Assembly (NCBI GenBank): GCA_038087875.1
Contig: CM075989.1
Coordinates: 13,952,001 to 14,016,000, forward strand
DNA length: 64,000 nt
DNA from: Malacoraja senta
Lineage: Eukaryota
Direction: 5' to 3'
Both the position numbers and the translations under genes were made by a program. The notes beneath the pieces are model-generated. The model did not search any database, was not told the origin of the DNA, and saw only the letters and a program-made list of their open reading frames with translations. This document shows, in pieces, positions 2,830 through 64,000 of the stretch (within the stretch, counting starts at the first letter, position 1; the number at the start of each line of letters is the position of its first letter).

Positions 2830-4444
2830 CAGTGGCTTGCAAAAGTTTTCATACCCCTTGAACTTTTCCACATTTTGTCACGTTACACCACAAACGTAAA
2901 TGTATTTTATTGGGATTTTATGTGATAGACCAACACAAAGTGGTGCATAATTGTGAAGTGGAAGGAAAATGATACATGGTTTTCAATTTTTTTTACAAAT
3001 AAAAAACTGAAAAATGTCGCGTGCAAACGTATTCAGCCCCCCTGAGTCAATACTTTGTAGAACCACCTTTCGCTGCAATTACAGCTGCAAGTCTTTTGGG
3101 GTATGTCTCTACCAGCTTTGCACATCTAGAGACTGAAATTTTTGCCCATTCTTCTTTGCAAAATAGCTCAAGCTCAGTTAGATTGGATGGAGAGTGTCTG
3201 TGAACAGCAATTTTCAAGTCTTGCCAGAGATTCTCAATTGGATTTAGGTCTGGACTTTGACTGGGCCATTCTAACACATGAATATGCTTTGATCTAAACC
3301 ATTCCATTGTAGCTCTGGCTGTATGTTTAGGGTCGTTGTCCTGCTGGAAGGTGAACCTCTGCCCCAGTCTCAAGTCTTTTGCAGACTCTAACAGGTTTTC
3401 TTCCAAGATTGCCCTGTATTTGGCTCCATCCATCTTCCCATCAACTCTGACCAGCTTCCCTGTCCCTGCTGAAGAAAAGCATCCCCACAGCATGATGCTG
3501 CCACCACCATGTTTCACAGTGGGCATGGTGTGTGCAGGGTGATGTGCAGTGTTAGGTTTCCGCCACACATAGCGTTTTGCATTTAGGCCAAAAACTTCAA
3601 TTTTGGTCTTATCTGACCAAAGCACCTTCCTCCACATGTTTGCTGTGTCCCCCACATGGCTTGTGGCAAACTGCAAACGGGACTTCTTATGGCTTTTTTT
3701 CAACAATGGCTTTCTTCTTGCCACTCTTCCATAAAGGCCCGATTTGTGGAGTGCACGACTAATAGTTGTCCTGTGGACAGATTCTCCCACCCGAACTGTG
3801 GATCTCTGCAGCTCCTCCAGAGTTACCATGGGCCTCTTGGCTGCTTCTCTGATTAATGCTCTCCTTGCCCGGCCTGTCAGTTTAGGTGGACGGCCATGTC
3901 TTGGTAGGTTTGCAGTTGTGCCATACTCTTTCCATTTTCGGATGATGGATTGAACTGTGCTCCGTGAGATGTTCAAAGCTTGGGATATTTTTTTATAACC
4001 TAACCCTGCTTTAAACTTCTCCACAACTTTATCCCTGGCCTGTCTGGTGTGTTCCTTGGGCTTCATGATGCTGTTTGTTCACTAATGTTCTCTAACAAAC
4101 CTGAGGCCTTCACAGAACAGCTGTATTTATACTGAGATTAGATTACACACAAGTGGACTCTATTTACTAATTAGGTGACTTCTGAAGGCAATTGGTTGCA
4201 CTGGATTTTATTTAGGGGTATCAGAGTAAAGGGGGCTGAATACTTTTGCACGCCACACTTTTCAGTTTTTTTATTAGTAAAAAAATTTGAAAACCATGTA
4301 TCATTTTCCTTCCACTTCACAATTATGGGCCACTTTGTGTTGGTCTATCACATAAAATCCCAATAAAATACATTTACGTTTGTGGTTGTAACGTGACAAA
4401 ATGTAGAAAAGTTCAAGGGGTATGAATACTTTTGCAAGCCACTG
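2830..4444 (-). mobile_element. Full-length Tc1/mariner IR/DR-type transposon (Passport-like)
   Basis: TA target duplication at 2828-2829 and 4445-4446. TIRs of ~212-214 bp (2830-3041, 4231-4444) start CAGTGGCTTGCAAAAGT, each with an inner repeat of the terminal motif. Encloses one transposase ORF. Confidence 0.97.
3047..4066 (-). CDS. Tc1 transposase, uninterrupted 339 aa, DD34E
   Basis: Paired-like HTH N-terminus, GRPPK linker, WSD, FQQDNDPKH and SPDLNPIENLW. 34 residues counted between the second D and the E. Confidence 0.95.
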   Translation of the reverse strand: MKPKEHTRQARDKVVEKFKAGLGYKKISQALNISRSTVQSIIRKWKEYGTTANLPRHGRPPKLTGRARRALIREAAKRPMVTLEELQRSTVRVGESVHRTTISRALHKSGLYGRVARRKPLLKKSHKKSRLQFATSHVGDTANMWRKVLWSDKTKIEVFGLNAKRYVWRKPNTAHHPAHTMPTVKHGGGSIMLWGCFSSAGTGKLVRVDGKMDGAKYRAILEENLLESAKDLRLGQRFTFQQDNDPKHTARATMEWFRSKHIHVLEWPSQSPDLNPIENLWQDLKIAVHRHSPSNLTELELFCKEEWAKISVSRCAKLVETYPKRLAAVIAAKGGSTKY

Positions 4445-7070: not shown

Positions 7071-8337
7071 TATGTATGTCTTTCCTTTCACCAATTCACT
7101 CAAAAAAAGTGGATCTTTACTGTAAGCATCTTCGCTTGGAAGACCCATTTATTAAATTACAATTAAATCTGCCAATTTTGGGACGCCAATCCATCTTGGC
7201 TTTTTCAACTTGCTTAATTTTTCCTCTTAATAATTAATTTTAGACTGTCATAGTTTGTATTATTTTTTACAAAGATTCCAAACACAAATCTTCTCTTCAT
7301 GTTCTTGCACTTGTAGGTCGAGAGTCTTTTATTTGCTATCTCCCACTTCTCATCAAAGTACAACTCTTTGTAACATTATCAAAATGTACTGCATCAGCTT
7401 TAATAAATACAATGAACGCAAATCGACTCCACCTAATCATCCTCCCTCTTGTCCTGTCCCTGTTTGGCTGATATCCAGTGCTGGACAAGCAGAAATCTCT
7501 TCAAATTCTCTTGGGACAAACAAAGCCCCTGTACTCGATATACACAAAAACTTATTTTCCTCTAACTACGTTGTGTAAAGTTGAAGTAATCCAGATTTTG
7601 TGTTCCTATTTACCCATCCCATTCACCCAACACCCCTTATCATCTCCTGCTTACGCTGACAACCAACCAAGCAATATTAATATTTATATCCTTATTTTCA
7701 AATCCCCCGATTGGAACACCCCACCTCATCTCTAATCTTCAGCTCTACAAATGTTTGATATATCTGAATTTATTTTGTATTCCTGATGTTCTGTGATTCA
7801 TCTTCAGGTTCCAATTATTAAACATCTAGAAATCATGCCTCATCCACTCTCATTCCTACGCTAAGATGTACCTTTATATCTCCATATCAAATTGATCCAT
7901 GTCAAATTTTGATCGACAATGCTTTCATGAAACACTTAGTCATTATTAAGACATATTAACAATATCAAATACAGCTCAATATATTGCATCTATTCCACAA
8001 ATATAAACCAAATTCAATTATATAACAAATGTTTCCAGTTGATCATTTTCCCTTAGCCTTTACTCTTTCCTCGGAAACCTTCAATATTTAAAAAAAAAGT
8101 TTATTGGACACAAATGCTTTACTTCCCTTAAGCATCTTTTCTTCCCTTAAGCATTTTATTGTAAATTCACAGTAAGAAAGGTAAACACTGATACAAAAGT
8201 CTTAAAGGTATAGCATAATGGAAATTGCCCAAATGATTTGATCGATTAAGACCGCGATTCAAAACTATTATCAGCGTCTTCTGTTCTAACACATTGTTAA
8301 TCAAAATAAACTTGTATTGCAATGTAAATTGACATAC

Positions 8338-8567
8338 TTTAACATTGCTGCATTCTGTACTCTGAGCAGTAGTTGACGTGATCTGATTGTGACTGTGCTT
8401 GGGACTGCAATAGCCGCTATCACTGTCAATGTCGGCTTCACTGGCTCCTTGCTCACTAGAAGACTCAGCAGCAGGGTGAGATGCTCTTCTTCGCCTGACT
8501 TTTGATTTCCAAAGCATGGGACTGGCCCTCTCCGAGAGAGATTTATTAGCTACATCTCCAGGAAAAT
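8338..8567 (-). CDS. SECISBP2L: SECISBP2L exon 5 (DFPGDVANKSLSE...RRRRASHP...ESSSEQGASEADIDSDSGYCSPKH)
   Basis: Acceptor tttaaag| and donor AAA|GTATGT, 230 nt, phase 1->0. Highly conserved SECISBP2L block that includes a DSGYxS motif. Confidence 0.96.
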
Positions 8568-9519
8568 CTTTAAATAACAGAATATAAATATTGCATGAAT
8601 AATTGTAAATAATGAAAGTACAAATTATCACAGCTATCAAATGCTACAAATTTCAGCACCATTTAGTCGACACACAAAACTAGACGGGAAAGATGAATGC
8701 ATATTTATCTTAATTCAGCATTGATAATTCAATCTGTTCTGCTGAGGCTTCCACAATAAATCTATAAGTACTTCCCCGAAGAACTTCTTGGGCATTTACC
8801 AGAAAAACTGCAAACACTACTTCACTCATTTAATGGTAAAACAAAACAGAAACAATTTGGTATAAGGGTAACCAAATGAATATATGTCATAGTAACTGAA
8901 GATCAAAATGTTGACTTTACTAAATTATATTACTGCCAGAACATGCCAGATGTAAATACATGAACAAGACTGGTATGTTCTGGTGATCGGCTTAGTAATG
9001 TCATTTATAATAAGTGGTAAACAAAATACAATTCAAATATCATACTTGACAGCTAAATATTGTTCCCTGGTTAAATAAAGGCAACAGTGTTTGGGGCACC
9101 ATTTTTATTCAACATTACATCAGACTCTAAATAGTTGGAAGCAGTGATGGAAGTTGCTAATCTGCACCCCAATTCCAACCACTTTCTGTATCGAACTTCA
9201 TGGCATGGGGATTCTTAACGTCAAAATCCAATTCATGTTGCTCTACAAAGATCTTGAAAGAACATTTAATTGTCAACAGTATAGTTGTTTAAGACTATAA
9301 CAAGAATCACAATGCAACAATTGATTTTCTTAAAAATGTTAATAAAGTCAAAATAAATTATCAGAAACAAAGCAATTGGAACTTCATAATAAAACTTAAT
9401 CTTTGTTTCCAATACTGAAGTATAAGACAAGCATAATTGAAGGAAATATCATTTTGCTCAGCTTGTATTCTAGGAAAAGTTTGTTTTCAAATTAAGCTTT
9501 CAATAATAATTTTTATTAC

Positions 9520-10533: not shown

Positions 10534-12767
10534 TGACTCTTACCACCAAGCCAATTGTAATACACTAGCTAACCCATCCTGGATCTCATGGCATCTAAAC
10601 TTCCAAGTGGGATCTGGTCAAAATCATTGCTAAAGCCCCTGTAGATAATGTCTACTTTCCTATCCTTGTCAATCCAGTGATTTGCATTTTGCCAATAGAA
10701 AGACCAAAATCCCGTGATTTGCATTTTGCCAATAGAATTGGTTTCCCATTAACAACTTTATCATTGAAGTATCAGAATTACACAGATTAAGAAGAAGCTA
10801 GGCAGAATCCCAAATTTATCCACAGGAAGAAGGCTCAACTGGATTTGAAGTACAGAGTTATAAGTGTTACCAATAAACTAAATTAACGAAGGGCAAAATT
10901 GGCCTCATGCTTAAACCATGCTTACTATCTGACCATTTTAATCCTAACTGTAGTTATATGGAACATATAAGATACATTCAAAAATGGCCATGAATCTTCA
11001 TTAGTTGGTTATAGTTGTCAGAGTCATACACTTAAAGAGGATATGGGCGAGCACTACACCATGTTTTAGGAAATGAACAATATCCTCAGAAAGGACAAAA
11101 TAGTGAGGAAACATTTTGAACCATGCATTAATATCATCATTAGAATCTGTCATTTTAGCATGTTACAAATGGAAGGAAAGTGATTATTAGTAATCTTTAA
11201 TATCATATCCATCACATTCTATGATCTATTTCAAAAAACTCTGAATGTCAGTGCTCTGTTCTCAAGAAAGGGCGATGGAGATGTTACAACAAGCTTTCCT
11301 GCACAAAGGCTAAAATATTTAAAGTTTCAAGCACTGCCAGGCATACAAATGTCATGAGCAAAGTTAACATACTCAGACGGAAACCAAACTTCCTTGCAGA
11401 GATGCATTTTTGAGATAATTCCTTAATGATGGTCGACATTATTATTCATTCCTCATCATAGGAACAGAGGAATGTGTCAAACACAAGTTCAAGAAGTGTG
11501 CGTCTGGTTTTGACACCCACATAACACAAACTGGCTTTACCCCACGTAATGGTGGAAGCACAGCAGGCCAAGCAGTATCTGTGAGGAAAGAAAGAGCAAA
11601 TGCTCCAAATCAAGGATAATCATCAGAAATGGAAGAGGGCAAACAAAAAGCATGTTTTAAGATGTGGAGGAGGGTTGGGAACAGAGAGGATATCTGCGAG
11701 AGGGTGCAGACAGGGTATTGCCTGGGATGGAGTACTTCTGTTACAAGACAAGATTGGAGAAGCTAGGTCTGTTTTCCCTGGAGCAGAGAAGGTGAAGAGA
11801 GGGTATGACTGACGTGCATGCATAAACATATGTATGATATGGACCAGGTTTTCCCCTTATCTGATAAAGCTAGGGGACGTGAGATTTAGGGTAAGGGATA
11901 AGAGATTTTAAGGGGAATCCAATAGAGACCGAGAGTGGAGAGTAAATGCTGGAGAAGATGGTGGAAACAGAGCTGCTGACAGCATTTAACCAACGTCTTG
12001 AATGAACACCTGAATCACATTAGGTAGAAGGCCATGATCCAAATGCTGGAAATGGGATCAATACAGCAGACATTGTGGGTCAGTTTCCATCTGCGTGCCT
12101 CTGCAACACCATGCCAAAGTAAACAATTAAACCAATATCGACTGTGGAATCTCACTGCAGATGGCAGAAATTGTGGCGAACAATCCACTGAATTGGAAAG
12201 ATGGTAGGCTTTCTAGAGAAACTCCTTTGTTCTAGCTAGGAGAGGGGATGAGAGTAGAATTGAGGGAGATGGATGAGGTGTGAATGAGAACCCCATCAAC
12301 AATGATAGAGTGAAGGCCACAGTGAAGGAAAAAAAGACATAGTATTAGTGTTGGTCGAAAAATTCTTATTATAGCATATACAATAGAGATGGAGAAAGTA
12401 GGAGTTTGTAACCCTAACAGAAATGATTTGTGGTCGAGATAACTGTGGGAGTTGATGATCTTATGATGGTTATTGGTTGCTAACCTACTCCCCATAGTTG
12501 CTGCACCACCTGCAGCATGTTACCTGATTTTTTGAGGGGCTTTCTCGCATCTGCAGTTTTATCCCTCCAGTGCTGTATTACTTCAAATAGGCTGCCCAGC
12601 TATAAAGCTGCCAGCCGTAACAAACTGCTCAACTCACTGTGCTATATCAAGTTTTTCAACAAATTGATACATGTGTTTCAGAATAAAAGCAAAGACTAAT
12701 TTTTAAATGGAGCCATGCAAGAGGCGATCAATAAATATTAAAAGACAAAAAGGCAGCAAATCCCTAC

Positions 12768-13086
12768 CTTTGGCAATGGCCCTCTGTTGACTCTGCTTCT
12801 CGGAGTTGTGGTAGGACACACAGCTCCAGCAGGAACGGATCTTTCATTACATTCAGAAACTGCATTTACCACCGTTGCAGGTTGGAAGGATGCAGTATAC
12901 GGTGTTGGTAAAGGGGAATAAAACCCCATCATCGGTGTGCATGGTGCTGGCATGAACTGGTAATAAGCATAATCAGTAGAAACAAGAGGCTGTGGAGTTG
13001 GCAATATTGGATAAGCAAAGTATGGTCCTCCTGAGTTTGGATTCGCTTGAGGCCACCGAATATCACCATTGTACGCAGGCAATTGC
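12768..13086 (-). CDS. SECISBP2L: SECISBP2L exon 3 (QLPAYNGDIRWPQANPNSGGPYFAYPI...RGPLPK)
   Basis: Acceptor ttttatag| and donor AAG|GTAGGG, 319 nt, phase 2->0. Recognisable as the SECISBP2L YNNDIRW...GPYFAYPI...YYQLMPAPC region. Confidence 0.95.
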
Positions 13087-14114
13087 CTATAAAAATAAAA
13101 TAATTAAATCTGTATAATTATTAATTTACACCTTATCTCTGCACTTCTGCTCCTCCCCCCCCCCACCCAAACTTCTGCTTCCTCGTCAGAGAAATGTTGC
13201 AGCTGAGTATACACTTTTCTCATAAATCCATCAAACGGAGACAATTGTCCCAAAATAACCTACAATTCAAACCCAAGTGAATAGAACTGCTGCCTCAAAG
13301 CCCCAGTGGCCTGGATTATGTACCTCGGGCATTGCCCGTGTGGAGTTTGTACATTCGCCCTGTGATTGTACGGGATTGCTCTATTTTTCTCCCACATCGC
13401 AAAAGCAAGCACCCTGATGGGTTTGTTGGCCAATTAACTTAATGTACGAGATCTTTTTGCACCATTTCAGATTGCAATTTAATCGTTGCATCATTCTGTT
13501 GTTTTCCACCAGTTATTTACTGTTGTATTTATCATTACCATGTATACCATTTATTATGAGCTTTATGTGATCAAGGAGTTTCATCCAACCATCATGTATA
13601 TGACAATAAACTGATGCGAGTCAGAATTAAAACTAAAACTAAATTTCAGTAGTGTTCAATAAAAATATTCAAAAACCAAACTATATATCAATAAATTACA
13701 CATCAGAGAACAATGGTCAGGAGAGTATTAGCCAAAAAAAACACGAAACATTATTACCATAAAATCCCATGTGCAACTCATGCTTGCTTTTATTCATTCA
13801 CCCCTCTTGAAGATCAACATTTTTGGTAAACAAATTTCTTGATCTCCCTCAGATCACAAACTATTGTGTATCCATGAGACTGAGACAAGTTCATTTTCCA
13901 AATGATACACCATACAGAATAACTTGTTGCCCACATTGCAAGGTTTGAAAAGCACGAAAAGCAAAACTTATGACATTCTCATCTGTGGATGGTAGAAGCA
14001 CAGGCAAATGCCAGAGGAATTAAGTGAAACATAGAAAGTGGACAAATCCCAGGGAATTTCATTGAGAAAAACTGTTAAGGGATTCTCTTTTACCCTGGTT
14101 AAAGGTAGATGCAG

Positions 14115-34483: not shown

Positions 34484-34611
34484 CTCTTCTTCTTGCGTAT
34501 GGCGTGCACATCCTAAAGTTGTTCTATTTGATCTTATTTGATTGTGCTCGCCAGATTGATTGCATTCGTTGAAACAGGGCGGACCACTTAAAGGTTGCAA
34601 TCTCCCACCCC
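34484..34611 (-). mobile_element. Short non-autonomous retroelement with an HDV-like ribozyme head, copy A
   Basis: 13-bp TSD AATATATTAGTTT (34471-34483, 34612-34624). Starts GGGGTGGGAGATTGCAACC and ends GCCATACGCAAGAAGAAGAG. Confidence 0.85.
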
Positions 34612-35774
34612 AATATATTAGTTTTAGAAGAAAGATCAGTCACCCGCTGAGTTTCTCCAGCATTTTTTGTCCACCTTTGATTTTTCCAGTATCTGCAGTT
34701 TTTTCTTAAACTGTACATTTATCAGTTCACACATGGATCATTGGCGACAATATCAGGTGATAGATGTTGTGGAAAAAGTTGCTGCTTATCTGGTGATCGC
34801 CTGTAACCTTGCCCCGCCTTTCTTCATTGTTTGGCATCTACAAAACAGGAAGTATGTAAGCTATGTGCCACTGCAATTACCCTGCAATTTGAGAGAAATT
34901 GCTGGAATGCGGAGGCGAGGTGGGCAGGTATGTTGAACAGAAAGCTTTACATCAGCAGGTTTCAGGAAAGGGAATATTCCATGTCCCAAAGATGGCAGAG
35001 TTCTTGTGGAAATATCTTTTCTCCAGTTCAGGGTGGGTAGCATTTAACTAATCATTGACTACAGAGTCCAAACTATTAAAAGAATGTTGTTCACAAATGT
35101 TAAAAAATAATTTCAAGAATGTTTTGGCATTTTTTATGATTTATCCTCAGTCATCCCTAACTCTTTGGGAGGAGTTTTGTTTTATCGTTTCATCCAAGAT
35201 ATCTGTGCAAGTAAGTTCCAAGATTTTTTTCCAGAGCTTTTTTGTTTTCTATTTCTGCATCACTACTTGCTTCTTGCATGGTTTGCGCAGATACGATTTT
35301 TATCAATGATGTGGAAAATAAAAATCGGGAACTTTTGGAAATGTGTCAGTTAATTGATGCTTAATTTGGACTTCCTGGAAAACTGCATTTGGTTTTCCAA
35401 GTTTAATCAGGATTGAAGATAGACACAAAAAGCTGGAGAAACTCAGCGGGTCAGGCAGCATCTCTGCAGAAAAGGAATAGGCGATGTTTCGGGTCAAGCC
35501 CCTTCTTCTCGATCCAAAACAACACCCATTCCTTTTCTCCAGAGATGCTGCCTGACCCGCTGAGTTACTCCAGCTTTTTGAGTATCTTCTGTTTAAACCA
35601 GCATCTGCAGTTCCTTCCTACACATTTCATCATGATTGAAGTCCCTTTCTGAAGAATAAGTGTGTGGGTTCAGAAATCTTGCATGACAGAGCAATGGTAA
35701 TGGGTATGTTTGAGGTCTTGGTTAATGGAGATTATTTTATTTTCTTCAATTACTGGACCTCATGAGGAGTTGCT

Positions 35775-35828
35775 GGGGTGGTAGATTGCAACCTTCACGT
35801 GGTCTGCCCTGTTTCGACTAATGCAATC
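35775..35828 (+). ncRNA. Predicted minimal HDV-like ribozyme (head of copy B, element 35775-35861, 3'-truncated)
   Basis: P1 GGGGTGG/CTGCCCT with G1.U wobble, P2 GATTGCA/TGCAATC, P3 ACC/GGT, L3 TTCACGT, P1.1 C-G, P4 reduced to T-TTCG-A, J4/2 CTAA with candidate catalytic C35818. Confidence 0.75.
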
Positions 35829-38181
35829 AACCCGACGTGCACAATCAAATAAGATCAAATATTTGTCCAGCCAAGATGTCAGGCATACTTGAGGCTTCCA
35901 GTGACATACAACTATGCGGTATTCAAAGTGATGTCAACAAGTCAAGTTCACCAATTGCTTCAATGACCCTCAGCTATAGAGTACACGGGCTCAACATTGA
36001 TGTCCATAACACTGAAGCTGATGCTCCTCATTATTTTTTGGATTAGGTCGATCTTCATCTCAGTCTTGGCAGCTTTGTCAGGTGGTTGCAACAGGGCACC
36101 ATGTGATTTGGTCTCTTTTCAAATCAAAGGTGTGTGTTCAAGGATAGACACAAAAAGCTGGAGTAACTCAGCGGGTCAGACAGCATCTCTGGAAAAAAGG
36201 GATCGTGCCATTTCGTGTTGAGACCCTTCTTCAGACAGGAATTCATCCCACCAATAATCATAAGCCAATCTAAAACATAGATTGTGGACACATATGTGGA
36301 CAATGTGTGTTTAACACATGCATCGAAAAGCATTAACACTTACAATCTTCTGCATGGTCCTGGGCAGTGTGCAGTATTGACGTAAAACTTTGCTGCAATA
36401 AGATCCCATCGAGGTAACTAACCAATGGTTGTTCATCAGGTTTTGACATGTCTCCATTTCTGGAAATATTTCTCCAAGAAACTTGACTATTAAAAGAATA
36501 GCAGATCTCGAAACAAATACAATAATTTCCGTGTTAATTCAACTAGCAAAAACTCAATGTAGCTTTACCACGCAGCGCCTTCGGCCCACGTTTGTTTTTT
36601 GCCATGTGCTGTGTTTACTGATTTCAGCTGCAGAGGCTGCTACTAGTGTACATTGCTATTGCTATTACCCCTCATAGTTTAGATGCCAGCTGAGTCCTTG
36701 AACATGTTTGACAGTGGTGTCTTCCTCAAATGGAATGTCAGCACTTGTCATCTGATGAGCATATGAAGATCATCCTCTTGTTAAAGACATTGGTTGTTTA
36801 TGGAACTAATCCTCGTAGGAGAGAAAGGGACAAAAGAAAAATTGAAAAAGAAAATGCATTCTCTGAAATATTAGCTTCACTGCTTCCAAAGAACCTGCAC
36901 TGAAATATAATTTACAGTATATTTCAAACATTATGATTAAACTCTAACAGAGCAAATGTTTTATTCAAATAGACCACAATGATCTTTGTTGCAAATGAAA
37001 GTATACACCCTCAACATTTTACAAAAGATGCATTTAAAGGGGTTGCATACACACACGCATGCACACGCACACACTCTCTCCCTCTCTCACCTACATACAC
37101 ACTCTCACATAAATGTTTACCACAGTCCATTTACCAAAGGAATTGATACTTTAAAATACCTATACGGTGGTTAAATGTTTTTGCACATCTAAATGTTAAT
37201 CTTGTAATTTCACCTGGTACCTGCCGACAGGTGAGCCAGGCAGTACTTTTTTTTGCCATTGTTTGCATTTCCAGCAACCTCAGTCTTTACGTTTTAATCG
37301 TTGCTGTTCGATTCGTCTTCTCTCCTGAGAATGCTGCTCTTGAAATTCACCTTTTCCCTTCATCATTATTGTTGTTTGTTTTTTGCTCCCTTGTACTCTC
37401 ACTGTTGTTGATTTCCAAGAACAATTATAGGGAAGGAGGCCCAGCATGTCCATACTAGTTCTCTACAAAACAACCCTATACTTTTGTCCTTTGTCCTTAG
37501 CCCTGAAATAATTCCTTCAATACATATTTTTTGAATTCCCTCTCAAAAGTGAAACTTGCCTCCATCACATCTGGAGATAGGGCATTCTGCATTTCCTTCT
37601 CCAATATCTTCTTCTAACTGTTGCTTCTCATTCCAGCAACCATCCTCTTTTCTTGGCCCTCTCTAATGTCTTCACACCGATCCTCCGAGGCAATGTGAAT
37701 TGAGACACGGCTTGAAGCGGGATCAGTTTTTTTAGTAAAGGTTCTATATGACTTTCCTGCTTTTCTACTCTATGCTTCCTCTGATAAAGCCCACTCACCA
37801 TGATAATGTGTGTGTTACTAAGCCAACTTCGTATCCATGCTATCAATATCCTTTTATGTCATGTGCTGCAACATTACTGATATCCTAACCTATCCAGAAC
37901 CTTCTGATACATTACATTAGAGAACATAGAACAGTACAGCACAAGAACGGGGCCTATGGCCCATGATGTTAAATTAAACTGCAGCCACATCAACTGCATT
38001 ATTTCATCAACTATATCTGTTACCTCATGGAAAAACTTCTATAAATTGGTTAACAGCTCTTAACAAATCCTGTCTTGGATCGATGTTTCTAAAAGCTTTC
38101 CCTGCACTAGTCTTGAGCTTACCTCCTCTGTATCAAGATTTGCTATTGAACTACTGCCAGTGGTTTTGAGCAGAACATTAA

Positions 38182-38418: not shown

Positions 38419-39340
38419 TAATGCTTTGTCTCCTTGTAATTAGACTGAGTAAGTTGCTATCAAAGAGACCCAATCAAAGGTTTCTGTGGCACTATCATTT
38501 CACACACCAAATCATTCTATCCTACTTTTGAGCACCAAAATGGTACATTTGTCGACCCATTGTCTTGCGTCTCCTGTGCGTGATCCTGACCTCCATTGCT
38601 GTCTGTATGGGGTTTGTATATTCTCCCTGCAACTGTACATGTTTCCTCCAAGTGCTCCCGTTTCCTCCCATATCACAAGGATGTGCAGATTGGTTGGTTA
38701 AATGGATACTGGAAATTTCCCTGGTGGTTATATGAGTGGTAGAATCTAGACGGGTTGAAAGGAATGTGGGGAGAATTTTTGAAAAAGTAGATTAGTATAA
38801 ATACACGTAGGCACTTGCCAGTTGGCATAGTGGCATTGGGCTAGAGGACCTATCTCTGTGCTGCATCTCTCCATGACTCCACAAGTATTATCTTGATTTA
38901 TTTCTTCCATAATATCAGCTGGGTTTATTTCCCAGTTGACTTTGTCCCCAGGCTCAGATCATTGCCCATCTGGACTGTAACAAACAACTTCTGTCTTCTT
39001 TTTAGGTAGCGAGCTTTTGAAGCAAAAGTACCACTTGGTTCCAGCCATTTCCTAAAAATACCTTATTTGCACATTGATTTTATTTTCCTTTGAAAGTTTT
39101 CTTGTGTTCCACAACCTCCATCAAAGATTTACCAGGAGTAAGAGATATGGCTTCATTCCCATCCCCTCCGCAGCAAACTACAATTGAGCATTGTTTTCCT
39201 GCTGTTTTATTATTTGAGGCAATCTTCCTTTGTGATTCAGAGCACTTTTATCTTTAACCTTTCGGATTATGCTCTGGCTTCTTACCCTTGGGAACTACTG
39301 TAGAAACTTGTCCTCAAATACATTTCCACCCATGACATTA

Positions 39341-40614
39341 TGACAAATCTTATAGAATTTTTCGAGGATGTAACTAGTAGAGTGGATAGGGGAGAACCAG
39401 TGGATGTGTTGTATCTGGACTTTCAGAAGGCTTTCGACAAGGTACCACATAAGAGATTAGGATACAAACTTAAATCACATGGTATTGGGGGTTCAGTATT
39501 GATGTGGATAGAGAACTGGCTGGCAAACAGGAAGCAAAGAGTAGGAGTAAACGGGTCCTTTTTACAATGGCAGGCAGTGACTAGTGGGGTACCGCAAGGC
39601 TCAGTGCTGGGACCCCAGCTATTTACAATTTATATTAATGAGCTGGACGAGGGAATTGAAAGCAACATCTCCAAGTTTGCGGATGACACTAAGCTGGGGG
39701 GCAGTGTTCGCTGTGAGGAGGATGCTAGGAGACTGCAAGGTGACTTGGATAGGCTGGGTGAGTGGGCAAATGTTTGGCAGATGCAGTATAATGTGGATAA
39801 ATGTGAGGTTATCCACTTTGGTGGCAAAAACGGGAAGGCAGACTATTATCTAAATGGTGGCCGATTAGGAAATGGGGAGATGCAGCGAGACCTGGGTGTC
39901 ATGGTACACCAGTCATTGAAAGTAGGCATGCAGGTGCAGCAGGCAGTGAAGAAAGCGAATGGTATGTTGGCCTTCATAGCAAGAGGATTTGAGTATAGGA
40001 GCAGGGAGGTTCTACTGCAGTTGCACAGAGTCTTGGTGAGACCACACCTGGAGTATTGCGTACAGTTTTGGTCTCCAAATCTGAGGAAGGACATTATAGC
40101 CATAGAGGGAGTGCAGAGAAGGTTCACCAGACTGATTCCTGGGATGTCAGGACTTTCATATGAAGAAAGACTGGATAGACTTGGCTTATACTCGCTAGAA
40201 TTTAGGAGATTGAGAGGGGATCTTATAGAAACGTACAAAATTCTTATGGGGTTGGACAGGCTAGATGCAGGAAGATTGTTCCCGATGTTGGGGAAGTCCA
40301 GGACAAGGGGTCACAGCTTAAGGATAAGGGGGAAATCCTTTAAGACCGAGATGAGGAAAAACTTTTTCAATCAGAGAGTGGTGAATCTCTGGAACTCTCT
40401 GCCACAGAGGGTAGTTGAGGCCAGTTCATTGGCTATATTTAAGAGGGAGTTAGATGTGGCCCTTGTGGCTAAGGGGATCAGGGGGTATGGAGAGAAGGCA
40501 GGTACGGGAAACTGAGTTAGATTATCAGCCATGATCATATTGAATGGCGGTGCAGGCTCGAAGGGCCGAATGGCCTAGTCCTGCACCTATTTTCTATGTA
40601 TCTATGTATCTATG
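39341..40614 (+). mobile_element. 5'-truncated CR1 LINE with an uninterrupted RT C-terminal half
   Basis: ORF 39340-40515 (391 aa) with YLDFQKAFDKV, SGVPQGSVLGP, KFADD and RPHLEYCVQFW. CR1 3' UTR hairpin and (TATCTATG)n tail. Confidence 0.96.
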
Positions 40615-40931: not shown

Positions 40932-41067
40932 ATGGAAGATTGCACCCTTCACATGGTCCGCCCTGTTTTGACGAATACAATGAACCCGGTGTGCACAATC
41001 AAATAAGATCAAATAGAACAAGTTGTCCTACAACTTTAGGCTGTGAACGCCATATGCAAGAAGAAGA
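40932..41067 (+). mobile_element. Short ribozyme-headed retroelement, copy C (5' Gs missing, decayed fold)
   Basis: Same sequence as copies A and B, (GAA)n tail, TSD AGCCCA at 40926-40931 and 41068-41073. Inserted into an antisense CR1 3' end. Confidence 0.8.
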
Positions 41068-52669: not shown

Positions 52670-55600
52670 AGTCCAAAATCTGCAATAAGAATTGGGCAAT
52701 TATCTTGCTATTGATATATAATATTTACATTTTAGTACTAATTTCTAACAACTATTACTAATCATGAATACTAATTAATACTAATTATTGTTAACTGGAT
52801 CAACTCAGAATTAACTAAAAGTATGAAATATAGATAAAGTGTGATTCAGGTAATTTATTAATAACAATTTCAGAAGTTTTTTCTTTGATACTTTTGACTT
52901 TGATTACTCTTTGACAATGTTTTTTTGTTGTTGTTTTTTTTGCTATACGAGACTAACATTTCAATTGGAGACTAATAATTAGTTCAATAATGGAATATAA
53001 CTATTGTTTCCCTCCCCCCCATAAATTGTTTTCATTGTAATTGAAACTTTTCTTTTAAGGAAAGTACGGAGCTAGTAATATTTTTTTTTACCAAAAGCTA
53101 CGGTAGTCCTTAGATGCTTAGCCACACTAGGGTGGCTATCACTAACTGCACTAATCTAATCATAGTTGTAGTTTTCTTCTTTTTCTACTCTTTACACGTT
53201 ACTAATGCAACATTTTTTTACCTTTTCTATCTTATGTTATATTATATTTTGTATTTGGAATGGAATTATATATTTTATTTAGGGAGATATGTCCGGATGG
53301 AAAACCGACGAGACCTAAAATTCATCTACCTGAAGTTCGGGTATAAGGTAGGGGTTAATGTGCTGAGCTATCTGCTCTAACATAGACCACTTTAATCACA
53401 AGATGCAAGACGTTAATAGGAATATTGGGGGTGAAGGAATTAAATTCTGTAGCTGGAATGTTAAGGGAATTAATGAACCAATCAAGAGAGGTAAAGTATT
53501 AGCTCATTTAAAATCACTCAAAGCAGATATAATGTTTCTCCAGGAAACACATCTTAAAAAGGAAGTAAAACATAGATTGAAAGCAAAATGGATTGCTAAA
53601 GCGTATCACTCTTCATTTTCACATAAATCTAGAGGGGTTGCAATATTAATTCGTAAAGGTATACCCTTTAAACATATATCAACGATAGAAGATATCGAAG
53701 GCAGATATATTGTATTAGTAGGGGAGTTATACTCAAAAAAAGTGACTCTCCTTAATGTGTATGGACCAAATTTTGATAGCTCCCTGTTTTTTAAGAGAAT
53801 ACTTAACATTATTCCAGAATGCACACAACATAACTTAATTATCGGTGGAGACTTAAATTGTACACTGGATGCTTACTTGGATAGATCATCAACTCAAAGA
53901 AAATTAAAATCTCAGTCAAGTGAATATCTAAACATATATTAATACTACCAACATTAAGGATGTTTGGAGAATTGAAAAACCATCTGGTTGAGAATATTCA
54001 TTTTACTCACCAGTGCATAAAACTTACTCAAGGATAGACTATTTCTTAGTAGACTCTAAACTTATCCCATTTACCTATAATTCGCAATATCATAATATTA
54101 TAATATCGGACCATGCTCCACTAACATTTATGATTAAACTAAACGGAATGACCGAGACACAGTCACAATGGAGACTTAACCCCCAAATCTTAAAAGAAAA
54201 GCTATGTAATGAATACCTCGTAAAACAGATTAATATGTTTTTTGAGGCTAATGATAGCCCTGAAATCTCTGCCTCCCTTCTTTGGGAAACATTTAAAGTA
54301 TTTGTGCGAGGAGTATTAATCTCTTCCCAATCATTTCTTAACAAAGAGAATAGGGCCAAACAACAGACATTGGAAATGGAAATAAGGCAATTAGACATAG
54401 AAAATGCAATAGCACCATCTATGGTAAGACACAATAAAATTGCAGTACTGAAATATAAGTTAAACAAGATATACTCAGACCAGGTTATAAAACTATATCA
54501 ACATACAAAACAATTAAACTTTGAATTTGGTGATAAACCACAAAAACTATTTGCGCGTCAACTTCGTAAACTGGACGGGGAATAAACAATTTACAAAATT
54601 AGATCAGACAAGGGAGAAACATTAACACTGCCTAAAGATATTAATGATAGATTTTTACAATACTATCAAAAACTGTACTCATCTAAAACGACAGAACAAT
54701 CAGCAGGAATGGAAACATTTCTACAGAAATGTAATCTTATGGGTTTAGATCAGAAAGAGAGAGAATCACTAGATGCTAAAATTACGGTAAAAGACATCGA
54801 AGAGTCAATTAGATCTTTAAAAAATGGAAAGGCCGCAGGTCCTGATGGTCTATGCTCTGAATTTTATTTAAAAAATTACGATCTGATTTCTCCACGCCTA
54901 CAGACACTATACAAATATGCTTACACTCAACAGAAACTCCCAGAAACTCTAAATGAATCTACAATCATACTTATACCAAAAACGGATAAGGATCCTGAAG
55001 ACCCAGGTTCATATAGAGCAATAGCTCTCTTAAATACTGATCAGAAAATATTAACCAAAATCCTTTCTCATAGATTGAGCTTAGTGATTAACAAATTAAT
55101 ACACCCCGACCAAACAGGTTTTATTCCAAAACGTTACTCATTTTATAATTTGAGAAGACTATTCAATATTATATATACAAATAGAATTCCTAATGCAGAT
55201 CTAGGAATTATTTTGTTAGATGCTGAAAAAGCATTTGACCAGGTAGAATGGTCATATTTATTTTCGATAATGGAAAAATTTCAACTGGGAGAGAAGTACT
55301 GTACATGGGTTAAATTGTTATACTCTAACCCAACAGCTAGAATATTAACAAACCAAATGTTATCAGCTAAATTTAATCTTTCTAGAGGTTGTAGACAAGG
55401 ATGTTCATTATCCCCACTATTATTTGCTCTTGCAATTGAACCATTAGCAGAAAGCGTTAGAGCCCATCCAGGAATACACGGATACAACACTAGAGATACA
55501 AGGAATACAATTTTCTTATATGCAGATGATGTACTAATATATATTACAAAGTTAGAAACTAGTATTCCAAATCTATTAAATCTAATAACTCAATTTGGTC

Positions 55601-57504
55601 AGTTCTCAGGATATAGAATTAACTGGAATAAAAGTGAAATCATGCCAATAACAAAATTCAATTTAAACACATTACAACAATCCCCTTTTAAAATAGTTCA
55701 AGATAAACTTAAATATTTAGGAATCTACGTAACTAAGACATATACCTCTTTATTTAAACTAAATTTTCCACCCTTACTTAATAAATTACACAAGAATATT
55801 CAGTACTGGAAAACACTTCCCATTTCAATGCTTGGTAGAATTAATGCTATAAAAATGATCTTCTTACCGCAACTACTGTACCTATTTCAATTAATTCCGA
55901 TATATATCCCAAAAAACTTTTTCAAAAAAGTCGATTCCATTGTTACAAGCTTTATTTGGGATTATAAGAATCATAGAATAAGTAAAAAACATTTATGTAA
56001 GTCAAAGAGCGACGGAGGTTTGGCCTTGCCAAATTTCTTATTTTATTTTTGGGCAGTCCATATTAAAAACATGAATTTCTGGTTGGAAGAAATGGATCAA
56101 CAACCAGATTGGTTAAGGATGGAAAAGGAAGACTGTTTACCTTTTGAAATTGGTTTGATTATATTTGCTCCCACAAAACTGCATAAAAAAACCCTATAAG
56201 GAAAACCCTATAATACATAGTGGAATACGAATTTGGAAACAATTAAAAAAGCTTTAAAACTGAATAATATACCACTATGTCTTTCCATTGTAAATAATCC
56301 TTTATTCAAGCCATCCATATTGGATAAAGGTTTCACACAATGGAAAAATTATGGAATTAAAAAGATTGGACATCTTTATAGGAAAGGCATTTTTTTTTCA
56401 TTTCAAGAGTTACAACAGAATCATGGACTGCACTCAAATAATTTCTTCAGATATCTACAAATTAGAGATTATGTTAAATCTAATACACAAGTTTATAGGA
56501 CTAGGGAACCAGAAATTCTTGATGAATGTTTGAATAAGCATCCTAACACTGAAAAATGAATAGCTTATATTTATAACACCCTCTTAAACAACGAGGTACC
56601 ACCGATGGAACTATATAGACACACATGGGAAAATGAGTTAGGTCATCCTATAACGAAAGATATTTGGGACGAAAGTTTACAACATATACATCAATGTTCG
56701 TTAAATGCTAGACATGCTTTAATACAATTTAAAGTCTTACACAGATTACATTACTCCAAAATAAAACTAAATATAATTTTCCCACATATTTCTCCTATCT
56801 GTGATAAATGTCTGCATCTAGAGGCCAATTTAACACATACTTTTGCAAATTGTACAAAAATTAAAAATTTCTGGACTGATATTTTTGAAATAATTTCTGA
56901 AGTTGTTAATACTAAATTGGATCCAGACTCAAAATTAATAATACTTGGGATATCAGAACAAAGTTTAACACTCACAACAAGCCAAAGAAACTTCCTTGAC
57001 TACAGTATAATAACTGGGAAAAAATTAATATTAAAATTTTGGAAAGGCCCTATATCCCCCACAATTAAAATGTGGATTGTGGAAATGTCGGAGACCCTAC
57101 ATCTAGAAAGAATTAGACTTGTCTTAATGGACAAACAAGAACTTTTTGTTAAAATATGGGCTCCATTCATTAACTATCTGAAGGGATAGATTGGCCCAGC
57201 ACGAAAACCCAACTGAAGCTTGAACTCAGGATTAGATGTAAAATTATACTTCATAACCTACGAACTTATCTCCAATGACGTATTATAAGTAATTCATTCC
57301 ACCTCTATTTTTTGATATTTGTAATTCTTTTTTCTTTCTATCTCTTTTTTTCTATCTATATATATTTTTAAACACAAGAAGCAGAATTAATCGACAATTG
57401 ACAATTATAATAATGTATGATTGATGTATATGAAAAGTTTTTTTTACTATAATATGTTACTATACTTTATAATATGTTTGCTTCTAATAAAAAATATTAA
57501 AATA
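52670..57504 (+). mobile_element. 5'-truncated L1-clade LINE with a full-length but disabled ORF2
   Basis: 15-bp TSD AAAACTACAGACTGT (52655-52669, 57505-57519). ORF2 53403-57189 has an APE endonuclease (SWNVKG, LQETH, GDLN, SDH), RT (QGCSLSP, YADD) and CCHC knuckle (CDKC..H....C). AATAAA and A-rich 3' end. Confidence 0.96.
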
Positions 57505-59844: not shown

Positions 59845-60821
59845 CCAGACTTGCTTTGCAAATCCACACTCTGCAAAGAGGTGGGCAACCGGTCTCCTCT
59901 CCATAGCAGCCGTCCCGAGGGCAGCGTGCGCTGGTAGTGAGGTTCTGACGGTGCAGGAAGGATCTGACTGGGAGGGCTCCCCATCACCGCCAGCCAAGTC
60001 TTGGTGCTTGTTGGTGAGTTCTGGCGATGAGGCATTTTCGCCAGATAAGCTGGGAAGTCTGGTCTGGGAACCACGCCACAGGATCCATGGAGTCATTCCC
60101 CTGCAGTGCCTGCAGGACGTTCCGTGCTGACCACTGCCCGATGGACTTATGGTTAAAGGAGTTGGTCTGGAAGAACCTTTCCACGAGCGACAAATTTGAT
60201 GACCACATTTTCCATTAAGAGAGGAGAGCGCAGCTTCCACAGCTCCAGTTTCTTCCCCACCTTGGCTATCCCTCTAGCAATTCTTGTCACCTGCCTCCGA
60301 CCCCCCTGAAAGACCCATCCCCAGCACCTCAAGAGGTCATGCTTGATGGTGAAGGGGACGGAAAATCGGTCGGGCCAGTTGCCAAAGAGCTTGGGCCTCG
60401 CTCTTCCTGCGATTCCCCCTGACTCCCATGGCCGACTCAAACTGGTCGCAGACGTTAATCAATTTGCGGACCGACCCTGGATCCGAGCGGAAGACGGCGA
60501 AATCGTCCATGTACAGGGAGGTTTTGACCTGAGTGCCCCCACTGCCTGGCAACGTCACTCCTCTTATGCTTGCGTCCTTCCTGATGGACCCGGCGAAAGG
60601 TTCAATACAACAGACGAACAAGACAGGGGAGAAAGGGCAACCCTGCCTCACTCCAGACCTGACGGGGAATCTGTCTGATTCCCACCCATTGATTTGGACT
60701 GCCACTACAGATATCGGTGTAGAGCACTTGGATCCAATTTCTAAGATTTTGGTCCGGGTAGATCACCCGTCCCAGAGCAGACTTGACCTGGTTGGCAATG
60801 GCCTTAGACTGGATCTTGTAA
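59845..60821 (-). mobile_element. Tx1-like (L1 clade) ORF2 fragment with internal deletions
   Basis: YKIQSKAIANQVKSALGRVIYPDQ, SGVRQGCPFSPVLF, SLYMDD and a C-terminal HLFAEC knuckle remnant. Runs into the gap. Confidence 0.88.
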
Positions 60822-62562: not shown

Positions 62563-63480
62563 GTAAGTAGTAAGTAAGTAAGTAAGTAAGTTTTATTTAT
62601 ATAGCACGTTTTAAATCAACTCGTGTTGAAACCAAAGTGCTTTACATAAAATAAATAATAAGTTTCCGTACATCCATAGAAAAAGATTAAAATAGAAAAA
62701 TTGACACAACACATTATAGAATTCAACACAAATGTCCCCCCACAACAGAATCAAAATTTTCCACTGTGGGTAAAGGCACCAGAAAGTTTAGTCCTCTTCC
62801 TCTGTGACCACTCGAGGTCGGGCCCTATTTGTGGCCTTGCAGCCAGTCCGATGTTTTCAGGCCCTCTTGCCGTGTAGCTGGAACTCCGGCGTCGGGTGGA
62901 CATTCCTCAGCGGCTTGGAAATGTCTGGAGCGGCCGCTTCCTCCCTGGAGACTGCGGCACCCGAGGTCCCCAGGCCGCGCTGGTTGGAGCTCCGACTCTG
63001 GCGATCTCAGCAAGAGGTCCCAGGTTCCGCGGTGTTCTAAATCCAGCGCCGCCCGCCCGCAGCTGGGTGCTCCGCAGACCGCAGCTCCTCGATGTTGGAG
63101 TCGGCGGTCACCGCACTCCGGAGCTTACCGCTCGGCGACCCGGTAAGGCATTGCCCGCTCCGTGTTGGTGTCCCAGTGCAGTGCCACTGCCGAAGCTGTA
63201 GTCTCGGCTGGTCCCGACAGGAAACGCCGCTCCAGTCCGATGGTAGGCCGCGAGGAAGGGGCGAAGAAACAGCTCGGAGGGAAGCTGCCAATCCGACCAG
63301 AAGGGACTAGGAAATAAAGTTTCCCCCATTCCCCTCCCCCACCCACCACATAAAAGACCTCCAACTAACATTTTGTTTTTTAACAGGACTAAAAAATAAA
63401 ATAAAAAATGATGAAAGGGCGGACTGCAGGCAGAGCAGCCATATACAACGGCGCCCTACTCCTGAACATCCGCCATCTTG
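62563..63480 (-). mobile_element. GC-rich non-autonomous retroelement with an L2-like tail
   Basis: The 5' end is CAAGATGGCG (YY1-type motif, 63480-63471). The 3' end is AAAGCACTTTGG...GTGCTATATAAATAAA followed by (CTTA)n. Confidence 0.72.
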
Positions 63481-63488
63481 GTTGGTAG

Positions 63489-63897
63489 CTTCTCCATGGA
63501 TTGTCACCTTGTCGTGGTGGAGAAGCTTGGTCCTGATATCCTGAGAACGATGCCATCTGGAGCTATGCTCCTGGTAGGACCACCCATGGCGATAAGGTCG
63601 AGCCGGAGGACTCTGACAAAGAGCAATCCAACCAAGACCACAACGGCGGAACAGGCGGAGGATGATGGCTGACCTTAGTGGAGCGTCACAGCGGCTGGGA
63701 AGGCAGATGAAGGATGCAGTAGAAAAGGGTCTCCGGTTGTTTTGGACTCCATGCCACTGGATCCTGACCCAGATCTGTCAAGGATGCTGTGGTGGCTGTC
63801 TGTGCACCAGACTCCCCATGTTAAGCAAAGTCACGCACTGGCGTCCTCCGACCATGGAGACACCCATGGTCAGCCATGAGCAAAGGGGGCCTAAGAA
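63489..63897 (+). mobile_element. Bipartite RTE-derived short element with a predicted HDV-like ribozyme at its 5' end
   Basis: TSD GGTAGCTTC (63484-63492, 63898-63906). 5' block CACCTTGTCGTGGTGGAG...CTGACAAAGAGC resembles RTE (Expander/BovB-type) 5' UTRs. 8-bp stem GACCATGG/CCATGGTC (63850-63871) before a short tail. No RT ORF. Confidence 0.78.
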
Positions 63898-64000
63898 GGT
63901 AGCTTCAAAGGTTGATTAGTGCATGTTAAAAATCCCACCTGAATCAATAACTAATTCTCCCTGGAAAAACAAGAAATGTGAACCGATGCTGATAAATTCT

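Follow-up and report, generated by a model that had tools for sequence, protein, structure and literature searches.

HDV-like ribozymes are said to have been described by Ruminski et al. in 2011 at the 5′ ends of non-LTR retrotransposons of the RTE clade, and the first pair of the L1Tc ribozyme is C-G. RTE is one of six clades listed as having 5′ ribozymes, and one of four listed as yielding bipartite non-autonomous LINEs in which the 5′ end is kept (PMC5786205, Kojima 2018), and RTE ribozymes are described as cutting at the 5′ junction of the element (PMC3774820, Eickbush 2013).

We analysed a stretch of 64,000 nucleotides (the window). Very probably, the 142 bases 63489-63630 open an old copy of a non-coding repeat that is 410 bases long, present in high copy and similar at its start to RTE 5′ ends, and they carry a predicted HDV-like ribozyme likely cutting before C63489. 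As in the RTE elements, the HDV-like fold begins at the first base of the element, the predicted cut falls at the 5′ junction, and a homologous motif stands ahead of single APE-RT ORFs in relatives. Unlike them, the window fold belongs to a 410-bp non-coding family.

The L1Tc/NARTc ribozyme of trypanosomes (PMC3185411, PMC3383444, PMC4035085) is similarly 5′-terminal, cuts just before +1, has a G-1-sensitive single-pair P1.1 and is common to a short non-autonomous derivative; downstream refolding has been reported for it (PMC3383444), and a primer listed in PMC3185411 has C at +1. It belongs, however, to the Ingi clade and is 77 nt long with a short P4, whereas the window fold is 142 nt long, its P1.1 is G-C and its P4 spans 89 nt in several helices. 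Short, ORF-less, high-copy elements with a LINE 5′ end, a microsatellite tail and a target-site duplication (TSD), like the one in the window, are described as RTESINE1/2, WALLSI3, MAR4_MD, Bov-A and R2 SIDEs (PMC5786205; PMC6765202). The window element differs from these bipartite LINEs in host lineage, and its 3′ part is without a match among the metagenome relatives. With the HDV/CPEB3 consensus (PMC6326823) the locus shares a P1 of 7 bp, a P3 of 3 bp, an L3 of the form U...CG, a CRRA-like J4/2 and the nested double pseudoknot. The descriptor in that source has a G1-Y first pair and a C-G P1.1, while the window copy has a C-G first pair, a single G-C P1.1 and no Rfam match. According to PMC4035085, the original HDV descriptor requirements were too restrictive, and P1.1 varies in number and bases. 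Judged by sequence, the fold is HDV-like and of a kind already known, 5′ ribozymes of RTE jumping genes having been described (PMC5786205).

The HDV-like fold predicted at 63489-63630

The coordinates of the features are collected in Table 1. A check of the sequence gave seven Watson-Crick pairs for P1, between CTTCTCC (63489-95) and GGAGAAG (63519-25). In the window copy J1/2 is a single A; P2 joins 63497-505 to 63621-30 with one bulge, and P3 consists of three pairs, ACC/GGT (63506-08/63516-18). L3 is TTGTCGT (63509-15), with the U at position 1 and the CG that make the reverse U-G wobble of HDV-like ribozymes. P1 (7 bp), P2 and P3 (3 bp) follow one another in nested double-pseudoknot order, the pairing between L3 and the bases 3′ of P1 falls within the one to two pairs of an HDV-like P1.1, and the catalytic C followed by N-A-A appears as C63617 and AAA. 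Within P4 we distinguish a basal helix (63529-34/63607-12), a hairpin (63559-71) and a helix 63553-57/63588-92 that is disrupted in the window copy.

Table 1. Positions of the ribozyme, the element and associated features in the window
Feature	Positions	Strand	Remarks
Predicted HDV-like ribozyme fold	63489-63630	+	predicted cut 5′ of C63489; pairing and covariation
P1, enclosing the P2 5′ strand, P3 and L3	63489-63525	+	C-G first pair
P1.1, single-pair pseudoknot G63511-C63526, then U63510/U63527	63511-63526	+	
P4 domain, 89 nt	63528-63616	+	several helices
Strand able to pair with P3/L3 in the window copy (competing helix); normally P4	63590-63598	+	
J4/2 CAAA, predicted catalytic C63617	63617-63620	+	conserved columns in relatives
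P2 3′ strand	63621-63630	+	two-sided changes in 7/7 P2 pairs
Non-coding, ~410-bp, high-copy retroelement with RTE-type 5′ end and (AAG)n tail	63489-63898	+	contig boundaries
Remaining part, presumably the 5′ UTR of an RTE followed by a short 3′ end	63631-63892	+	within the repeat unit
Target-site duplication, 5′ copy GGTAGCTTC	63484-63492	+	last 4 nt common to the element start
Target-site duplication, 3′ copy GGTAGCTTC	63898-63906	+	9-nt direct repeat
Second, minimal HDV-like fold	35774-35831	+	'mini-SINE' ribozyme of the first-pass annotation

All the pairings and coordinates that the first-pass annotation had claimed for P1, P2, P3, L3, P1.1, a P4 of about 90 nt and J4/2 are present in the sequence. 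Its P2 with one bulge is also there, with the bulge moved: the homologues place it at A63622, not at G63623, with a T63504-G63623 wobble, and the column C63505-G63621 pairs in 23 of the 30 aligned rows.

The strict HDV descriptor (G-Y first pair, C-G P1.1) failed on the window copy, and Rfam gave no HDV-family match, whether the whole window was scanned at the gathering threshold or 62800-64000 at E<=10. Weak Rfam matches (mir-2009, mir-33, C4, mir-492) were far under gathering and were regarded as chance. Our own HDV-like descriptor found two sites in the window, the fold at 63489 and one near 35.8 kb, compared to two in 60 dinucleotide-matched random windows.

The site near 35.8 kb, which passes our descriptor, has L3 TTCACGT at 35794, a C-G P1.1, a very short P4 and a 7-bp P2. 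A repeat in its region recurs at 34525-34612 and 40933-41067, and BLAST gives no alignment between it and the RTE-type fold at 63489.

The repeat family and its boundaries

Contigs of four sequencing runs, from four organisms, were aligned to 63350-64000. Contigs with unrelated flanks (agreement 0.35-0.37) stop just before 63489, numbering 78, 103, 114 and 81 per run among the ends listed; a lesser pile of 5′ ends at 63490 holds 40 and 35 contigs in two runs, again among the ends listed. Because the flanks diverge just before 63489, the 5′ strand of P1 is element-encoded, and the cut is predicted at the first base of the element, so that cut site and element 5′ end coincide as in RTE-clade ribozymes. 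The first-pass annotation had asked whether the family starts at CTTCTCC or whether this strand is only target DNA, and the contigs of all four organisms do begin at C63489.

The 3′ contig ends pile up behind 63896-63898 in 4/4 runs, and the loose consensus there begins with AAG. The whole 410-bp unit is tiled by contig pieces. Summed depth inside the element is thousands of times that of the right flank, which is not a copy number and is read as 'high copy' only, and it drops to the single-copy level after about 63900. Pieces of the element were found in 20 of the 24 sequencing-data rows listed, under nine organism labels plus metagenomes, and in RNA sequencing runs the share of element words was small (0.06-0.08). 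Two tested frames overlapping the element had no Pfam match, and a second copy is absent within the 64-kb window. A short ORF-less unit amplified whole, with a TSD and a microsatellite tail, is what characterizes bipartite non-autonomous RTE elements, and we infer this bipartite nature for the 410-bp family.

The 9-nt direct repeat at 63484-92 overlaps P1 by CTTC, in agreement with the earlier claim of a 4-nt overlap between predicted cut site and TSD; target and element thus have a microhomology of these bases. In two further organisms, one contig each spans the 3′ junction and its flank, with 7 differences in 130 nt. Since the junction is shared, the insertion in the window is likely older, on this sequence evidence, than the split of these organisms. 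No empty-site joint across the element occurs among the joints listed from the contigs of the four runs. The family had no description in the literature searched; Repbase and Dfam lay outside that search, and it may already be catalogued there.

Immediately upstream, at 63350-63483, another multi-copy repeat with high contig depth adjoins the element head to head; its minus-strand start, AAGATGGCGG, is presumably a YY1-type motif of LINE 5′ ends. Elsewhere in the window, the frames 3047-4078 (-), 39304-40515 (+), 53367-57189 (+) and 60337-60762 (-) include LINE RT/endonuclease frames (RVT_1, Exo_endo_phos; Pfam), and we take one among them to be a Tc1-like transposase frame. The frames 8167-8643 and 12738-13103 (-) had no Pfam match. 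We take their peptides to be SECISBP2L-like exons; if this is true, a host gene lies on the strand opposite the ribozyme, far upstream.

Relatives and covariation

Relatives were sought with a pattern of three short window motifs, which left little of P3/L3 free to vary and required a purine in P1.1. A C-G P1.1 was not findable with this pattern, and most P3/L3 conservation among the relatives, that of L3 included, is imposed by the search and is not evidence. The pattern gave 91 matches in 90 metagenome loci and no matches in prokaryote genomes. Three loci in viral contigs, found by a looser pattern, were all without P1/P2 context and were regarded as chance.

At one metagenome locus (L073) an ORF of 1035 aa with Exo_endo_phos and RVT_1 lies 3′ of the motif; ORFs of 889 aa (L030) and 968 aa (L045) have the same position. 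The homologous motif of L073 thus stands ahead of a single APE-RT ORF with a short-repeat tail, as in the RTE clade, and loci of this type would be RTE by their architecture, from which the clade name is taken. The closest DNA match to the window (L050, 72% over 147 nt) lies upstream of an endonuclease ORF. Multi-copy families among the relatives also begin at P1 base 1, one of them in eight matches with six different flanks and another in four matches with three flanks. RTE cores like those seen here may already stand in published supplements. Of the label 'RTE-derived element' used in the first-pass annotation, the part that concerns the ribozyme domain holds, this domain matching the heads of APE-RT ORFs. 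For 63631-63898 an RTE origin is presumed; the best local scores of 63631-63850 and 63846-63898 against the metagenome reference loci did not exceed the shuffle maxima.

Some of the relatives are of interest in their own right. L006, L007, L012 and about 30 other WLWD loci form a non-coding family of about 450 bp that has this ribozyme core, ends in (CAAGT)n and sits in (TG)n microsatellites. Many of its copies are without the P1 5′ strand at one common junction; a subfamily may thus be spreading although its P1 does not work. In an RTE-type family (L045, L068, L072) P3 is CCC/GGT, its first pair being a C-U mismatch in 3/3 copies, while P2 and J4/2 are intact. Upstream of 3501 in L036, the 5′ part of the ribozyme is tandemly repeated ahead of the element.

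For the alignment, five contig-end matches were dropped, the remainder was collapsed at 93% identity, and L021, a chance match without P1, P2 or J4/2, was removed; the result was 29 relatives plus the window. Across these 30 rows, 88.8% of the 910 cells in P2, P3, P1.1 and the P4 helices are paired. Two-sided changes were found in 21 of the 31 modelled pairs, a number that 0/500 shuffles reach, and slid controls gave 31-47%; the rows are related, and the shuffle counts and Fisher p values overstate significance. P1, where J1/2 length varies, was treated apart by combining own and foreign strands: a perfect P1 was found in 12/30 rows, compared to 74/864 foreign combinations. The 18 rows in which a perfect P1 is absent are read as decayed or truncated copies. 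The covariation check proposed in the first-pass annotation, run here on the metagenome relatives, therefore returned covariation in P1, P1.1, P2 and the P4 helices.

The J4/2 columns, which lie outside the search pattern, read A (30/30) for the preceding base, then C (28/30), N, A (30/30) and A (28/30), so that the candidate catalytic C63617 of the first-pass annotation is kept in 28 rows. Two stretches of P4, likewise outside the pattern, are near-invariant: TGGTAGGG (63572-79, columns 100-107) and CAGGTC (63594-99, columns 125-130). In the basal P4 helix, the window has T63531-A63610 where many family contigs have A-T, probably a compensatory difference between subfamilies. A P4 helix of AGGTC (63595-99) with 63537-42 fits by eye; it was rejected, with 1/5 pairs covarying, and is never predicted by folding.

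The states of P1.1 among the 30 rows are A-U in 15, G-C in 10, G-U in one, unpaired in three and a gap in one (covariation over 27 rows, Fisher p=1e-4). The first-pass annotation had taken the inverted G-C pair as support for the fold. The pair is real, and the evidence for it is the A-U/G-C covariation among homologues, not a comparison with the unrelated ribozyme at 35.8 kb; with G-C in a third of the rows and A-U in half of them, the inversion is nothing unusual. A C-G first pair, also proposed there, proved acceptable, 10 of the 12 perfect P1 stems of the relatives having it. As far as these sequences tell, RTE-type ribozymes commonly have a purine-first P1.1 pair (A-U, G-C) and open P1 with C-G.

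At many sites the window copy has letters other than those of the family majority. Four nucleotides are missing at the base of its P4, as seen in the loose ends of contigs at 63528-29 and in an alignment gap. In the family, G prevails at 63555 (82-98% of depth) and 63592 (85-94%) and completes the helix 63553-57/63588-92. The window copy has A at both, minority letters by which this P4 helix is broken and the competing helix strengthened, one of its U-G pairs having become U-A. The flanking G63488 (G-1) and A63487 (A-2) can extend P1 over C63526/U63527 (local fold, -12.4 to -17.1 kcal/mol). Among the relatives, the commonest -1 base is U (7/12). Cleavage of the L1Tc ribozyme is described as lowered by a G-1 through which P1 is lengthened and the single-pair P1.1 lost (PMC3185411), and another HDV-like ribozyme showed little activity when its J1/2 spacer was 1 nt (PMC4908430). 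Given the loss of 4 nt in P4, the broken P4 helix and the extension of P1 by G-1/A-2, the window copy is probably old and decayed and its ribozyme impaired. An upstream 10-bp inverted repeat (63476-85/63628-37) could compete with P2; it is flank-specific and by estimate about at chance level.

Competing pairings, alternatives and implications

A helix between 63506-14 and 63590-98 had been proposed as an on/off switch. It can form, the window sequence having all nine pairs (8 Watson-Crick and one G-U), and it dominates pseudoknot-free folding of the window copy, in which the competing fold has p 0.95-1.0 and lies 9.2 kcal/mol below the P2+P3 fold. The idea of a conserved, regulated off-state through this helix, for which the downstream attenuator known for the L1Tc ribozyme (PMC3383444) offers a precedent, nevertheless seems quite unlikely to us. 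None of its nine pairs covaries in the 30 rows and 500/500 shuffles do equally well; the two middle pairs (5 and 6) fail to form in 26 and 29 rows, respectively, and its p exceeds 0.5 in 0/29 relatives. Part of the 3′ strand pairs instead with 63553-57 in P4, where 4/5 pairs covary. Introducing three or seven majority letters brings the competing fold to within 1.3-1.5 kcal/mol of the P2+P3 fold, P1 being still uncounted. Folded from +1, the competing helix has p 0.99 with the 63592 majority letter alone and 0.27 with seven, and its ACCU/AGGU end of 4 bp pairs in 25-28 of the 30 rows; the family may thus still sample a weaker version of it. The folding model excludes the pseudoknot and predicts P3 in only 3/29 relatives, which makes it a weak judge. 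The proposed switch is therefore not conserved, and the competing helix of the window copy is likely wear in an old copy.

A second candidate, an 8-bp pairing of 63572-79 with P3/L3, is kept in 93% of cells over the 30 rows. Its covariation there is not significant (1/8 pairs covary, with 105/500 shuffles as high), a helix of equal length appears in 29/1000 column shuffles, and p exceeds 0.5 in 0/29 relatives. Conceivably, the near-invariant stretches of P4 pair with P3/L3 across animal lineages, through this 8-bp pairing and the 4-bp ACCU/AGGU end of the first helix, as a built-in off-state. It would gate cleavage or let the cleaved RNA refold, and the RTE protein might operate it; we regard this as a long shot.

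Two further readings concern the fold as such. If CTTC(TCC) were host target DNA, P1 would be borrowed, as R2 borrows 28S sequence; P1 strands of R2 can indeed be borrowed (PMC3774820), and CTTC also ends the 9-nt direct repeat. The family contigs of four organisms, which follow the window sequence as far as 63489 and depart from it only upstream of that base, speak against this, while the descriptor count in random windows (two matches in 60) and the covariation speak against a fold by chance. Either version of this explanation we consider extremely improbable. It is less far-fetched, still unlikely, that the fold is kept mainly as a 5′ structural cap, a promoter or a protein-binding module, the cut being dispensable in the short family or confined to the parent. 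Such a role would account for the near-invariant stretches of P4, which catalysis does not explain, and for the one relative family with many copies lacking the P1 5′ strand behind (TG)n; cap-like protection by a fold is described for R2 (PMC13708176). The conservation of the catalytic C and of the J4/2 A's, however, points to catalysis, and with cleavage one would expect the element to start sharply at P1 base 1, as it does. The two roles are compatible, and one does not exclude the other.

For the preferred reading, a self-cleaving 5′ end of a non-autonomous RTE-type element, the following course is suggested by the biochemistry of HDV-like ribozymes. A read-through or internal-promoter transcript would be made, its RNA would fold into the nested double pseudoknot, and C63617 would act as the general acid. 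The cut before C63489 would release the element RNA, with a defined 5′-OH end, from the longer transcript. Target-primed reverse transcription would then start at the AAG tail, carried out in trans by the protein of an autonomous RTE, and the 4 nt (CTTC) that the element has in common with the target would aid 5′ joining.

RTE-type ribozymes with a purine-first P1.1 and a C-G first pair escape both the strict HDV descriptors and the Rfam models now in use. The locus adds a well-supported case of an RTE-type 5′ ribozyme on a short non-autonomous element, with both covariation and an exact 5′ boundary. The conserved multi-helix P4 is the only part that the catalytic fold leaves unexplained, and it could matter for the design of RTE templates or for their regulation.
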